Of a stretch of 64,000 nucleotides of DNA, positions 46,701 through 61,700 are shown in pieces. This stretch comes from Escherichia coli (GTDB taxonomy: Bacteria > Pseudomonadota > Gammaproteobacteria > Enterobacterales > Enterobacteriaceae): the NCBI RefSeq assembly GCF_003019035.1, contig NZ_CP027448.1; one strand, given 5' to 3'. A program made the position numbers. The stretch's first letter is position 1. The number at the start of each line of letters is the position of its first letter.

Positions 46701-49700
46701 CCAGAAAAATGGCTGCGCTACGTCATTGAACATATCCAGGACTGGCCGGCAAACCGGGTACGCGATCTGTTGCCCTGGAAAGTTGATCTGAGCTCTCAGT
46801 AAATATCAATACGGTTCTGGTGAGCCGCTTACCCACAGATAGATTTAAATATCACGCCTTTTCATGGAGGAGGACTGAAAGGACAAAATGTTGTGAATAT
46901 GTGTTTTTATGATGGTTACAGTACTAACAGTAGTCATCTGCAACTTCGGTTTTATGATGATGATGGTTCTGGTTCCAGGACTGATTTATTCAAACTTACA
47001 AGCGCTGATGGCATTGGGAAGTTGCCTTATAAGGTCAGTCTGGCTTTCGGAGAAGGGGCTGCGAAAACGATTATAAATAATCGTACTCTTGTAATCGAAG
47101 GAGGCAATATTCCTGTTAACTGGGCGCGAATCCTACCGGTTTCTTTGCCTGATATTCCGATTCCTGTATTATGTTGGCCTGCAACACTGATACTAAATGC
47201 AAACTTGCCTGTCAGCCAACCCGCTAATGATTATACCGGACGACTTATAGTGGCATTTACACCAGACTCGGCTTCTTTATAGTTTCATATGTCTTATACA
47301 GGAATCCCTGTTGGGGGTTCCTGTATTTGTAAGCATTTTGTTGTTACTTGTGCTAGGCAAACTGCGGATGGATGTGTTGTTCTGTATTCAGTGCGAAATA
47401 ATGAAGGTAAACGAATAATATCGCCATTGATATCGGCAACACCTCTAACATTTGTAAGTGATGAGATGGTCTTCCCCCTCCTTCACGGCAGCCTTCAATT
47501 GCGCCATGAAGGATAAACTTTAACCACAAAAATAAGAGGGATACCATGTCTGAACAGAAAATCACCGGCATCGAGCTGGCTAAAACGAACTTTTATCTTT
47601 TCAGTATCAATGCTCATGGCAACCCCGCAGGAAAGGCCAAACTTTCTCGCAATCAACTGCTTAACTGGCTGGTGCAACAGCCTAAAATGACTGTTGCTAT
47701 GGAGGCTTGCGGGGCATCCCATTACTGGGTCCGGGAAATCAGGAAACTCGACCATGACGTAATATTGCTTCCGGCACAACATGTTAAAGCTTATCAGCGG
47801 CGTCAGAAAAATGATTATAACGACGCACAGGCAATAGCTGAGGCCTGCCAACATGGAACTATACGACCCGTACCAATAAAAAATCTGGAGCAACAGGACG
47901 TCCAGACTTTTTTGAAAATGCGCCGGTTGGTTTCGATGGAAAGGACACAACTGATAAATCACGTTCGTGGACTTCTTGCTGAATACGGCATTGTGTTCAG
48001 TAAAGGTGCAACAGAACTACGCCAAAAATTACCGGCACTACTTGAGGATGCGGAAAACGAACTCACTGATACCATGAGGACGTTATTGCATCGGCAGTAT
48101 ATACGGCTGATTACACTGGATAATGAATTGGAGTGGTATGATTCTGAACAGAAAAAATGTCCGGCAGGATCCTGTGTGCAAACGGTTGTTAGCTATTCCA
48201 GGATTCGGCCCCCTGGTTAGTCAGGCAATAAAAAGCTGGATGGGGGATGGAAAACAGTTTAGACGAGGAAGGGATGCATCTGCAGCTCTGGGGCTGGTTC
48301 CCCGACAGTTCAGCACGGGGGAAAGCAGGTTCTTCTGGGCATAACAAAATGTGGAGATCAATATATCAGATCTATGCTGATACACGGTGCCAGAGCGGTA
48401 TTGTTCAGAGCCTCAGAGAAAACTGATTCACTTAGTATGTGGGTTAATCGTATTCGGGAAAAGCGTGGCTTCAACCGGGCAGTTGTTGCTCTTGCAAATA
48501 AACTCCTTCGGATCGCCTGGATAATTATCGCCCGCAATGAGATGTATTTGCCTGCAATTTAAGCCAGATGTAATCTGACAGATACCTGTATAAATAACCG
48601 GTAACTGTCAGATCAGGTCTGAGCTAATACAGGTATGGCAGAACGTGACGTATTTGTACGGTGAATCCGGGGACATTTTGTGGAAGGTTTCCCGGAAATA
48701 GACCATGCAGGAGGAATGACCGGCGATAAAGTCTGCAAATACGGACTGATAAGGGTGATTATTGGCTCTGGCGACGGCTTTTAGAACTTCTTTCACCATT
48801 CTGGTGTGGACTTTCTGGTGCTCCAGGTTGTGTGACATGGGAACTCATTCTGGATGGTTACTCTGAAAGCTCATATTCTGCTACACCCCGATTTGCATCT
48901 GCCAAACTGTCGTGGTTTTGACGAGCCGCTTACGTAAATAATTGCTGTTAACAAACAGATTTAATGTTTCATCATTTTTATTATGTCGCCACTCTGTCCG
49001 CTCTGATACCCCTACTCACTATCATTGCTGGTGAGTCTTGGACTAACTCAAATAACTATTACGGGATATGGGGAGTGACAGCAAATGCTGTATTTTCTCT
49101 TGGTTCCTCACTTTATATTAAGTTTGTCAGCAATTTTCGCTCTTCATAAAAACGTACTGTCTGGTATTGGATGAATGTGAAGCATACCAGAGAGGAACTA
49201 TAAAAATATACATCAGTCATTCCATCCTGTTCTGTCTGTAAAGTCCTAATTATTTCTGAACTGTACTGGTGATAAAGCTTGGTGTTTGTTGTTTTTATAA
49301 CTAATTGAAATTACTTGGATAATGTTAAATAATCTTAAATAATTTTTCATCTGACTCTTTGTGCTTTAGGTTGGTTTTATCCAACGTCTTGGGTGTGCGA
49401 TATGCCGACATGTTATGTATTGCGATCTCCCTTTAATATTTATTGGATAGATGTTTATTGTGTCTTTGCATTATTGCCTGTGCATGTACAGGCAATGGCC
49501 GCGGTTGCAGATGAATTTCATGTGTTATTTTAGTTTGTCGCGTCGCACAAAGAGGGGTGGGGTGAAATGCGTCTTGGAATAATAATGCAGCTGTTGATTG
49601 TGCTCTTTTTTATGCGGGATGGATGGGGGGCGGAGCGAATAATATTTTCTGTAGATGTTGTGTCTTCAGCTTGTCATGTGGTGGTGGATGCGGACAGCAC

Positions 49701-58700: not shown

Positions 58701-61700
58701 ACCCGTGCCATCTACAATCCCCTGTATGACCTGATGTACCGCGCTGGCGTGCCGTTACGTAACATGCGTGTCTGTGAACCCTTTGGTCCGGAACAGCGCA
58801 AGGGACTATGGCTTTATCATGTTCTGGAGCCGGAAACGTGGGGCCGAATGTGTGAGAGGGTGTCCGGTGCTGCCAGCGGAGCACTTTATGCCAACGAAAG
58901 CGGTGCCTATTTTGCCCTGCGTAAACGTATATCAAAACCAGCCCATCATACCTGGCGCAGCTATGCGATGTTCCTGCTGGATGTGATGCCGGAAAGAACG
59001 GCAGAACATTACCGTAACAAGATAGCTATCTACCTGCGCTGGTATCAGACCCGGGGATTCCCGGATGACATCCCGGATGAACAGGAAAATGACCTGGGGG
59101 GCCGGGATATCCCGTCCTGGCGACGTATCTGTAAGACACTAATAAAGAATGATTTCTGGTGCCGGACCCTCTCCTTCAGTCCGAACAAACCCCGGCACTA
59201 CGAACGTTACCTGCAGCGTATGAAAGAAAGGAGAAAGGAATGGGGGATTCTGTGACACCGGAGGTGGAAGTATTGAGCAACATGATTCGTCAGTATTTCA
59301 GTCAAGTGCGAACTGATTCAGAAACCATACAGGCTCTGAATCATCTGCGCAGAGTGCTTCATGAGGTCAGTCCTTTTGCACAGGAGCCTGTGGACTGCGT
59401 ACTGTGGGTGAAAGCGGATGAGGTGGTGGCCAACGATTATAATCCTAATGTCATGGCGCCAGGTGAGAAGAAGTTACTCAAACAGTCTCTGGAGAAAGAC
59501 GGTTTCACACAACCAGTGGTTGTGTCGGAGGAGAAGAACCATTACCTCGTGGTGGATGGTTTTCATCGTCAGCTGCTGGGCAGGGAAGCAGACACAGGGA
59601 AACGCTTTAAGGGCTGGCTACCTGTAGCCTGTATTAATCCGGAGAGAAAGGGACAGGCATCACGTATTGCTGCGACCATTCGACATAACCGGGCCAGGGG
59701 GAAAAATCAGATAACCTCAATGTCTGATATTGTCAGAGACCTTTCGCGCCTGGGCTGGTCAGATGAACGAATTGGCACTGAGCTGGGTATGGACCGGGAT
59801 GAAGTGCTGAGACTGAAGCAGATTAGCGGGCTGATAGAATTGTTTCAGGAGGAGGATTTCAGCCCTGCGTGGACGGTCCGTTAAATAGCAGTTCAGCAAC
59901 GGCACCGGTCCAGCGACCCGGCGTGGCACGGCTCAGCTATTGCCTGTGCGTCGTTATAATCATTTTTCTGACGCCGCTGATAAGCTTTAACATGTTGTGC
60001 CGGAAGCAATATTACGTCATGGTCGAGTTTCCTGATTTCCCGGACCCAGTAATGGGATGCCCCGCAAGCCTCCATAGCAACAGTCATTTTAGGCTGTTGC
60101 ACCAGCCAGTTAAGCAGTTGATTGCGAGAAAGTTTGGCCTTTCCTGCGGGGTTGCCATGAGCATTGATACTGAAAAGATAAAAGTTCGTTTTAGCCAGCT
60201 CGATGCCGGTGATTTTCTGTTCAGACATGGTATCCCTCTTATTTTTGTGGTTAAAGTTTATCCTTCATGGCGCAATTGAAGGCTGCCGTGAAGGAGGGGG
60301 AAGACCATCTCATCGCTTACGCATCAGTACACGCTCAAAGCCCTCGATCACATTTTCGCGTCCTCCCGGCAAGCAATCAACTAAGCCACTGCCTTGCCCC
60401 CGGGAATGAAACCTAAGTAAGGTGCACTTTTTATGTCTATAGCAAAGCATTCTCCTGAGTTACGATTCAAGATCGGTAACAATTGCTCTGGTCCGCACAT
60501 CCCATATACAGCGAATGCCGATGCAAACAGCGCCCGTAACATTTTAGCAGCAGAGCACGCCATTCTTGCCTGTGGATGGTGCAATCAGGCCGCAGTTGAA
60601 GCAGGAATTCTCATTCTTCATGGCGTGAAGGAGGTCAAATGTATTATACAGCCCCCTTCAGGGGGCTGTATTTGTAAGCATTTTGTTGTCTGCAGTTACC
60701 TGTGCCAGGTAAACTGCGGATGGGGACGTTGTTCTGTATTCAAAAATAATGAAGGCAAACGAATAATATCACCATTGATATCGGCAATACCTCTGACATT
60801 TTGCAAAAAAAGAATTGTGTTATGTTTAACGTTGTTTTGCTGATAAATGCAAACCGAAAAAAACTTTCCTAACTCATCCAGTGACAAAACGTCATTATAT
60901 TTTATATTATGATGCTCTAATGGGATAAGCAAGAAGTCATTTTTATTTTTTCGCAATGAAATCCCTGTGTAATTTTCACTCAAAATTAACAAATTACCTT
61001 TTGTTACATAATGAAGCATACTATAATGCAAATAATTTATTTTTATATCTATATGTTCTTTTATACCGTTAAACTCTTTTTCTGCGCAAAATTCAGTTCT
61101 CCCCTTCGCGCACCAATAAAATAAGAAGCCGGTAACAGTAACAAACAAACTAACACTTAGTATGAAAAAATTACGCATTTTATTGATACTCACAAGAATA
61201 TTTATCACAGAATATACCCTCCCCCCCTTGCTCAAGGAATATTGCTGTCATCCCTTTTTCTGGCGGAGGGGTATTGAAATCGAAGTTAGAAAAAATATCA
61301 GTATCATTTATTTTTCTTGTCCTTATATCGCTTGCATTATATAAAAACAAAAAAACAGAAAAAACCATAAGTAACACATATATACCACATAAACAATATC
61401 GATATACAGGGATATAGATATTGTTTGAATGGGGGGCTTCCGTTTGTTTATCAACGGAAGCGGATAATTCATCTAATGACTCAGTGATCGTTATTTCAAT
61501 ATCAAGCAAAAAAGCATATCCTTCACCTTTATAAGTTTTTATCACTTCTTTTGATGATAGTTTTTTGAAAATATCTCTGATGTGTTTTATTGCAACAGGA
61601 AGCGATGATGCAGAAACCATTCTGCCCGGCCAGCAGTGACAAACCAGCTCATCATGAGAGATTATGGTTCCTTTATTTTTATAAAGGTATTCAATCAATA

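Follow-up and report, generated by a model that had tools for sequence, protein, structure and literature searches.

A stretch of 64,000 nucleotides (nt) of an Escherichia coli plasmid (contig NZ_CP027448.1; hereafter the window) holds two incomplete copies of one insertion sequence (IS) of the IS1111 family, a member of the IS110 superfamily of RNA-guided recombinases, which lie in opposite orientation on either side of an F4-like fimbrial operon and ibrAB-like genes. The question this locus raises is whether the segment between the copies has been inverted and, if so, whether an IS-encoded recombinase with its guide RNA or host recombination made the exchange. Here we provide comparative evidence that the segment was inverted, most probably by homologous recombination between the two IS fragments, and that the predicted guide RNA of the element lies downstream of its transposase gene, in a region that both window copies have lost.

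Results

Inverted IS fragments bracket a segment that is reversed in sister plasmids

A repeat search of positions 46500-61500 revealed a 397-base-pair (bp) inverted repeat, 47454-47850 against the reverse complement of 59924-60320, with 99% identity (3 mismatches) and arms separated by 12,073 nt. The initial annotation of this DNA had placed the inverted recurrence at 47470-47850 / 59893-60300, which is correct in substance, with the right arm approximately 20-30 nt off. It had also described a direct unit of approximately 150 bp at both ends, which the search resolved as two adjoining families, 47343-47390/60695-60742 (85%) and 47396-47453/60744-60801 (93%), and which gapped alignment lengthened to 47286-47453 versus 60633-60801 (~168 bp, ~85% identity, one 7-nt and one 4-nt indel). 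The two repeat systems have opposite relative arrangements, as had been claimed: the left copy of the direct repeat stops at 47453 and the inverted repeat begins at the next base, 47454, whereas on the right side 375 bp lie between them. Self-comparison of the whole window found no third copy of the IS.

The window derives from an E. coli plasmid of the IncFII type. Its close relatives p3RM8082 (cattle, USA) and p35A2a (farm environment, Switzerland) are complete plasmids with 98-99.7% identity to the window. BLAST comparison with p3RM8082 (comparison locus L003) showed window positions 45499-47850 to be collinear, 47454-60320 reverse-complemented and 59926-64000 collinear again, and p35A2a (L004) gave the same pattern. 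Both sister plasmids share the two outer junctions and carry 47851-59923 in the opposite orientation, which bears out the proposal of a past inversion of approximately 12 kilobases (kb) and establishes that inversion isomers exist. The gene order in the sisters runs from a fragment of a CfaE gene through a short IS open reading frame (ORF; annotated as a 336-nt 'IS110 family transposase'), ibrB, ibrA, virK, faeI to faeD, a fimbrial subunit gene and a hypothetical gene, and continues with the long frameshifted IS copy, psaF, the psaE-like gene and, farther on, the IncFII repA. There, the fae-like operon has the same direction as the IS and the psaEF-like regulators, the regulator genes lying collinear with fae and upstream of it; the sister orientation probably came first. 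In the window the fae operon, the split VirK/YbjX-family gene and the ibrA-like and ibrB-like genes are all within the inverted segment.

Both IS copies are defective (Table 1). The long copy resembles 'IS110 family transposase' genes in approximately 1,400 E. coli records, and its orthologue in strain A28, which has 97% nt identity to the window copy, is intact and encodes 343 amino acids (aa). The A28 protein matched the NCBIfam model NF033542, 'IS110 family RNA-guided transposase' (E 2e-91, 306.7 bits, cut-off 140), in agreement with the superfamily assignment made previously. Relative to A28, the long copy has lost 2 nt near 48157 and 1 nt near 48320, because of which its transposase ORF falls into three pieces (47546-48220, 48123-48344 and 48374-48562). 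Homology of the long copy to every independent copy ends at 48557, 17 bases short of the stop codon of the intact gene, and the guide RNA (seekRNA) region and the right end are missing from it. The short copy comprises the left extension CGATGAG, the left subterminal inverted repeat (60298-60309), the leader and 111 transposase codons (ATG at 60228).

The exchange maps within shared IS sequence

To locate the crossover, we compared the six repeat arms of the window, p3RM8082 and p35A2a base by base. A T/C single-nucleotide polymorphism (SNP) at repeat position 6 remained with the outer flank in all three plasmids, and when the window is set against p3RM8082, the SNPs at positions 390 and 392 have moved with the inner segment. 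The exchange was therefore placed between repeat positions 7 and 389, an interval of 383 nt that falls within the IS sequence common to the arms rather than at the IS boundary. The transposase gene of all three plasmids is defective, being frameshifted and cut at its 3′ end, and what recombined was one left junction with an identical one, not a donor with a target. Taken together, the internal crossover, the broken transposase and the identical left junctions argue for host homologous recombination rather than IS-encoded RNA-guided recombination. We assign a probability of roughly 0.85 to the reading that RecA-type homologous recombination between the 397 bp shared by the two copies inverted the intervening segment.

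In this scenario, two defective inverted copies of one IS1111-family element, 12 kb apart and each preceded by GTAAG, would have recombined and turned around the remainder of the IS, the IS481 and IS66 fragments, the fae-like fimbrial operon, virK and ibrAB. The inversion would have left the long copy abutting the psaF fragment (psaF′) and the short copy abutting the intact psaEF-like genes, the reverse of the sister plasmids. Neither window copy is able to transpose or to supply a guide RNA.

A recombinase of the IS110/IS1111 type, provided in trans by an intact copy at another place in the cell, could instead have carried out a programmed, seek- or bridge-RNA-guided inversion between the two IS left ends. 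Intact copies of the IS are found in other E. coli strains (A28, pRKI3099b), and IS110-family recombinases with bridge RNAs can produce inversions when target and donor sites are in a suitable orientation (Durrant et al. 2024, PMC11208160). However, retention of the position-6 SNP by the flank puts the exchange inward of the first IS base rather than at the target/IS boundary where the enzyme cuts, the left junctions do not form a pair of donor (right end joined to left end, RE-LE) and target, and the window has neither an intact transposase gene nor a guide RNA region, so we consider this explanation very improbable. The locus likewise does not resemble a programmed switch of the fimS/FimBE, Hin or Piv type, in which an intact dedicated recombinase acts at fixed boundary sites, because the sole recombinase gene is both frameshifted and truncated in all three plasmids and the exchange fell somewhere within the 383-nt interval.

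Several observations weigh against homologous recombination as the explanation. Between the crossover and the IS boundary lies a single SNP, that at position 6. In p35A2a both copies have the 'long-copy' alleles at 390 and 392, which calls for either additional gene conversion or another course of events. Neither left-end (LE) junction has the expected IS66 body on its right, and the history of both copies therefore includes deletions. RecA dependence is something we infer from the sequences. Finally, a search of 5,426 complete E. coli genomes and 72,556 PLSDB plasmids for the psaF′ junction contiguous with the long IS copy found the isomer of the window in no other record.

This last result bears on the main rival explanation, judged like the others from sequence alone, which is that the window arrangement is an assembly artefact: a wrong path taken through the 397-bp repeat, with the real plasmid in the p3RM8082/p35A2a orientation. 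The only two close relatives both have that orientation, the junction combination of the window is absent from the records searched, and a mis-join inside the repeat would produce exactly the observed SNP pattern. On the other side, long reads routinely and paired reads often resolve a 397-bp repeat, homologous inversion at repeats of such size is frequent in recA+ cells, so that both isomers are expected, and the window differs elsewhere by 0.3-2% from both relatives, pointing to an independent plasmid lineage. We regard a mis-join as unlikely, and homologous inversion of the segment as the better account.

The consequences of the inversion for fimbrial expression are probably small, as the upstream region of the operon (48934-49566) moves along with it. 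PsaEF-type activators are expected to act in trans. More speculatively, the 12-kb inversion might toggle the fae-like operon relative to the psaEF-like activators.

The predicted guide RNA lies downstream of the transposase gene

IS1111-family elements are defined by 11-13-bp subterminal inverted repeats, 7/3-bp extensions, a transposase of 330-350 aa and a downstream non-coding region (Siddiquee et al. 2024, PMC11187229). The element studied here has this architecture. Its E. coli copies in L006, L007, L089 and L090 share a right end finishing ...GGGGAAGACCAT ATA, in which GGGGAAGACCAT is an exact 12-bp inverted match to the left ATGGTCTTCCCC; in L006 and L007 the left end reads CGATGAG followed by ATGGTCTTCCCC and the right end GGGGAAGACCAT followed by ATA. 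In 20 relatives the subterminal repeats are kept as ATGGTCTCCTCCCC and GGGGAGGAGACCAT plus ATA, and the window copies carry the left subterminal repeat only (47466-47477; 60298-60309). The A28 transposase falls in the size range of the family (DEDD/IS110-type, ~330-350 aa), and the window gene is a pseudogene of it. Two other placements of the ends were rejected. An IS ending at ...GTAAAGCTTACC, 35 nt past the stop codon, which would give an element of ~1.16 kb with almost no non-coding DNA, was ruled out by L006, L007, L089, L090 and 20 distant relatives; the A28 copy is cut off at this point, and other copies run on into a conserved right end of ~250 nt. GTAAGC as the first six bases of the IS was rejected in favour of GTAAG as the tip of an IS66-family inverted repeat once the right flanks were compared and the 7-nt left extension of the family was applied.

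A protein-guided scan of 100,044 species genomes identified 80 relatives at 35-70% aa identity in Xenorhabdus, Vibrio, Photobacterium, Marinobacter, Halomonas and others. Many of these are on collapsed-repeat contigs of 1,345-1,432 bp, with ~90 nt upstream and 240-300 nt downstream of the coding sequence (CDS). RNAalifold analysis of 20 aligned right-end non-coding regions of relatives yielded 35 pairs, of which 17 showed compensatory changes; the paired fraction of cells was 96%, against 28-41% with partners slid 1-3 columns, and 0 of 500 shuffles reached the observed values. Loop A of this structure, which is unpaired, copies the bases just left of the element in all 12 of the 12 loci having a flank (for example, GTAAGCGAT in E. 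coli, TAGGTCGAT in Marinobacter, TAAGTTGAT and TAAGGTGAT in Vibrio/Photobacterium and GAACTCGAT in Pseudomonas profundi). In most loci the right flank recurs, reverse-complemented, in loop B, with 8-nt matches in L013, L014, L020, L030 and L037. A profile of the right end matched the seekRNA regions, both experimentally validated, of ISPa11 (E 8e-27) and ISEc11 (E 6e-20), whose non-coding sequences were taken from Supplementary Table 1 of Siddiquee et al. 2024 (PMC11187229). On this comparative evidence, the guide RNA of the IS is predicted to be encoded 3′, in the ~250 nt of non-coding DNA that follow the transposase stop codon and extend to the right end.

The same profile, which recovered held-out sequences serving as positive controls at E 1e-12 to 1e-64, found nothing in the window (nhmmer best E 0.22) or in L002-L005, sister plasmids included. 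The homology of the 3′ guide region together with its absence from the window indicates that both window copies have lost the guide RNA; a downstream seek/bridge RNA region is thus a feature of the family that is deleted here. Transposition in the IS1111 family is RNA-dependent and passes through a circular intermediate whose junction creates a promoter; as the window copies are without a right end, they could not form such circles.

The direct repeat matches the 3′ ends of psaF-like genes

The initial annotation had located candidate guide RNAs elsewhere, in a leader of approximately 245 bp upstream of the transposase start and in the solo direct unit near 60655-60800. An IS110 subgroup (IS621, ISEc21) does encode its guide RNA upstream of the recombinase gene, and region 47300-47449, in the left copy of the unit, folds better than shuffles (z = -3.4). 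However, of the supposed leader only 87 nt (47459-47545) belong to the IS, and their fold is unremarkable (-20.9 kcal/mol, z = -1.3); the rest consists of the target remnant at 47454-47458 and, at 47289-47453, the flanking psaF-like fragment with its terminator. The short left end and the subterminal inverted repeats are IS1111 architecture, not that of the IS621-like subgroup with a 5′ bridge RNA, which has a left end of ~150-250 nt and no long subterminal repeats, and in relatives the covarying, flank-matching RNA lies downstream.

The unit itself corresponds to coding sequence. Its right copy is the end of an intact psaF-like gene, into which the sequence continues, and its left copy adjoins the CfaE/CblD adhesin fragment, has its reading frame broken by a 4-nt insertion and ends at 47453, exactly where the IS66 tip and the IS start. 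The apparent structure of the left unit is accounted for by the terminator hairpin and a hairpin within the coding sequence, and the structured-RNA reading of the unit was rejected. By alignment and translation, the direct unit is assigned to two paralogous psaF-like genes, of which it forms the 3′ end and terminator; it is unrelated to the IS, and the left unit is a relic of a second fimbrial cluster, neither IS sequence nor a guide-RNA locus; the left paralogue would have been cut off at the IS66/IS insertion. An Rfam scan of 46000-62000 (E up to 1) returned two chance snoRNA-like matches only, a result of little weight against guide RNAs at these loci, as Rfam also missed the true guide regions of relatives. 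The proposal that the leader and the solo unit encode bridge or seek RNAs is refuted for both loci, and we give it next to no credence; the 3′ region remains the predicted site of the guide RNA.

Insertion at IS66-family ends

A left extension of 7 nt puts the first base of the IS proper at 47459 and assigns the GTAAG before it to the flank. When the flanks of the L007 copy were joined, they read GTAAG^CGGCTCGTCAGAACCGTATTGATATTTA, a 26/28-nt match to the inverted repeat of ISCro1 (IS66 family; reverse complement of 46800-46832), and with the 7-nt left extension the joined flanks restore an uninterrupted IS66 inverted repeat. In L006, IS66 homology of the right flank begins with the first base after the IS; an IS66 inverted repeat reads GTAAGCGGCTC... 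Judging from these flanks, the insertion site of the E. coli element is the tip (GTAAG^CG) of inverted repeats of the IS66 family.

Loop A follows changes in the left flank: in pRKI3099b (L089, 1801-3117) the flank is GTAAC and loop A reads GTAAC (GAGTAACCGAT), the corresponding sequences in the other E. coli copies being GTAAG and GAGTAAGCGAT. Among E. coli copies loop B varies as well (GATGAGG, GATGAGCC, ATATGAGCC), in step with IS66-type inverted-repeat variants. This variation of both loops looks like natural retargeting. We tentatively suggest, as a possibility that we hold to be somewhat less than even, that the E. coli/Shigella element is an undescribed IS1111 member with a seekRNA programmed for the outermost bases of IS66-family repeats, and that the GTAAG fragments in the window are relics of nested insertions. 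If this is true, it would be an IS parasitising another IS family, with single-base reprogramming between copies and loop-B variants per IS66 subfamily. We found no description of an IS1111 element targeting IS66 ends in the literature available, ISfinder not having been compared.

The IS66 fragment in the window at 48630-48933 retains its inverted-repeat tip intact; on the minus strand this reads GTAAGCGGCTCGTC from 48933. No 8-bp IS66 target duplications were found around 47454...48933 in either isomer, and the IS66 remnants are therefore not a simple insertion. Between this fragment and the cut-off end of the long copy, the IS481-family fragment at 48558-48631 forms a double hairpin of very high stability (-39.9 kcal/mol, z = -6.95). 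In pTB402 (L090), ISEc18 (IS481 family) sits inside the right end of the same IS1111-type element, and the two elements recur together.

Distribution and variation of the element

A PLSDB search found the IS in 123 Shigella plasmids; across all 176 matches together, identity was mostly 95-99%. The IS is a common passenger of Shigella plasmids as well as of E. coli F-type plasmids. Partial E. coli copies nearly always retain the left end, as in L008 (1201-2105), and have varied 3′ cut points (query positions 918, 611, 594, 543, 432, 233, 126, 90 and 51); no right-end-only fragment was present among 40 evenly spread E. coli matches. A 9-bp unit, AAAATCTGT, past the stop codon varies in number, with 1 copy in A28 and pRKI3099b, at least 3 in WGS1363, where the array is interrupted by IS1, and ~12-13 in CUVET19-1937 (array locations: L006 2632-2739, L005 about 2630-2660, L002 3133-3141). 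Several chromosomes of extraintestinal pathogenic E. coli (L005; L006 415-1405) have a different frameshifted IS110-family transposase gene ~95 bp upstream of the IS left end, and IS3, IS1 and IS66 fragments surround this pair in a nest of ISs.

Neighbouring genes and other repeats

The features of the locus are collected in Table 1. The PsaF/MyfF identity of the gene to the right of the short copy is based on the Prokaryotic Genome Annotation Pipeline (PGAP) names of 99% identical genes in p35A2a and p3RM8082 and on gene order. The psaF-like and psaE-like ORFs of the window encode 179 and 218 aa and overlap by 56 nt; they form one fused CDS of 1,002 nt in p3RM8082 (L003 20252-21253) and two overlapping genes in p35A2a.

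Self-comparison of the window revealed further repeats. A second inverted repeat of 398 bp (4690-5087 / 46436-46833, 95.5%) consists of IS66-family end sequence with copies ~41 kb apart and is another potential substrate for large plasmid inversion. There is also a 233-bp direct repeat (6141-6373 / 20583-20813, 94%), a 169-bp inverted repeat (32149-32317 / 44231-44399, 96%) and a tandem array at 22905-23522 with a period of 108 bp (~5.7 copies, 96-98% identity).

Table 1 Features of the inverted segment and its borders in the window
Feature	Position	Strand	Basis
C-terminal fragment of CfaE/CblD-family pilus tip adhesin gene, remnant of second fimbrial cluster	46893-47282	+	sister-plasmid annotation, ORF
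Left direct-repeat copy: terminator hairpin (47300-47322) and frameshifted 3′ fragment of psaF-like paralogue, stop 47344-47346	47286-47453	-	alignment, fold
Inverted-repeat left arm, probable recombination substrate	47454-47850	+	repeat search, self-comparison, SNP mapping
GTAAG, outer 5 nt of IS66-family terminal inverted repeat, target remnant outside IS	47454-47458	+	flank joining in full copies
Long IS1111-family copy	47459-48557 (1,099 nt)	+	alignment to intact A28 copy, ORFs, NF033542
Left extension TGATGAG of long copy	47459-47465	+	comparison with full copies
Left subterminal inverted repeat ATGGTCTTCCCC of long copy	47466-47477	+	comparison with full copies
Transposase pseudogene of long copy	47546-48556	+	alignment to A28
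IS481-family fragment, 74 bp, joined to cut-off IS end	48558-48631		98.6% matches under 'IS481 family transposase' annotations in many plasmids
IS66-family end fragment	48630-48933	-	widely shared plasmid segment; 76-aa ORF at 48608-48838
F4(K88)-like fae operon: subunit, usher FaeD, chaperone FaeE, FaeF, subunit-like hypothetical, FaeH, FaeI	49567-56707	+	PGAP annotation of 98-99% identical sisters, ORFs
Split VirK/YbjX-family gene	57061-57901	+	sister annotation, ORFs
ibrA-like PAPS-reductase gene	58017-59255	+	sister annotation, ORFs
ibrB-like gene	to 59884	+	sister annotation, ORFs
Short IS1111-family copy	59924-60315	-	first 392 nt of IS proper; cut at 59924
GTAAG, IS66-family inverted-repeat tip of second (short) copy	60316-60320	-	same reasoning as 47454-47458
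Right direct-repeat copy: terminator hairpin (60648-60665) and last 35 codons of intact psaF-like gene	60633-60801	-	alignment, translation
psaF/myfF-like gene	60696-61235	-	annotation in p35A2a and p3RM8082, translation
psaE-like winged-helix regulator gene	61180-61836	-	annotation in p35A2a and p3RM8082

Discussion

The feature examined here is an ordinary IS-mediated inversion of a virulence-type plasmid segment. In the annotation and comparison of F-type plasmids with F4-like fimbriae and ibrAB, such isomers should not be taken as differences in gene content. Beyond the window, public genomes offer comparative evidence for a gamma-proteobacterial IS1111 clade with a conserved 3′ seekRNA whose two loops track the insertion flanks. 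The enterobacterial member appears to target IS66-family ends and may provide a natural series of guide/target pairs for programmable-recombinase work.

The element is closest in design to ISEc11, ISPa11 and ISXne4 (PMC11187229, PMC11208160). Like these, it has a DEDD/IS110-type transposase of 343 aa, 12-bp subterminal repeats, 7/3-nt extensions and a short left end, with a long right non-coding region homologous to the seekRNA regions of ISPa11 and ISEc11; one loop corresponds to the top strand of the left half of the target and the other to the bottom strand of its right half, and insertion occurs without target duplication. ISEc11 differs in the sequence of its subterminal repeat and in its target, GTGAAAATACTG, as against GTAAG^CGGCTC or GTAAG^CGCCTCAT here. 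Unlike the named IS1111 members, the E. coli copies of this IS have a variable (AAAATCTGT)n array after the stop codon, and the window copies are fragments that have neither the seekRNA region nor the right end. The transposase shows only distant similarity (E about 1e-5) to the solved ISCro4 and IS621 proteins. IS621 and ISEc21 belong to the same recombinase superfamily and share its RNA-guided logic but have a long structured left end (a 177-nt bridge RNA in IS621; a non-coding region at bp 8-179 in ISEc21) and no long subterminal repeats, whereas the element here combines an 87-nt left end and 12-bp subterminal inverted repeats with a predicted guide region on the 3′ side.

IS4321 and IS5075 insert into the ends of Tn21. 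They parallel the present case as IS1111-family elements targeting the terminal inverted repeat of another mobile element, with copies nested in the end of the host element; the host is Tn21/Tn3 there and the IS66 family here.

In bacterial chromosomes and plasmids, inverted IS or rRNA copies can give rise to large inversions through homologous recombination. The present inversion resembles them in its inverted repeat copies, in the exchange inside shared sequence, in the kept outer junctions and in the occurrence of isomers among related replicons. It shows no difference of substance from them; its particulars are that the copies are dead fragments with 397 bp in common and that the cargo is a fimbrial operon with ibrAB.

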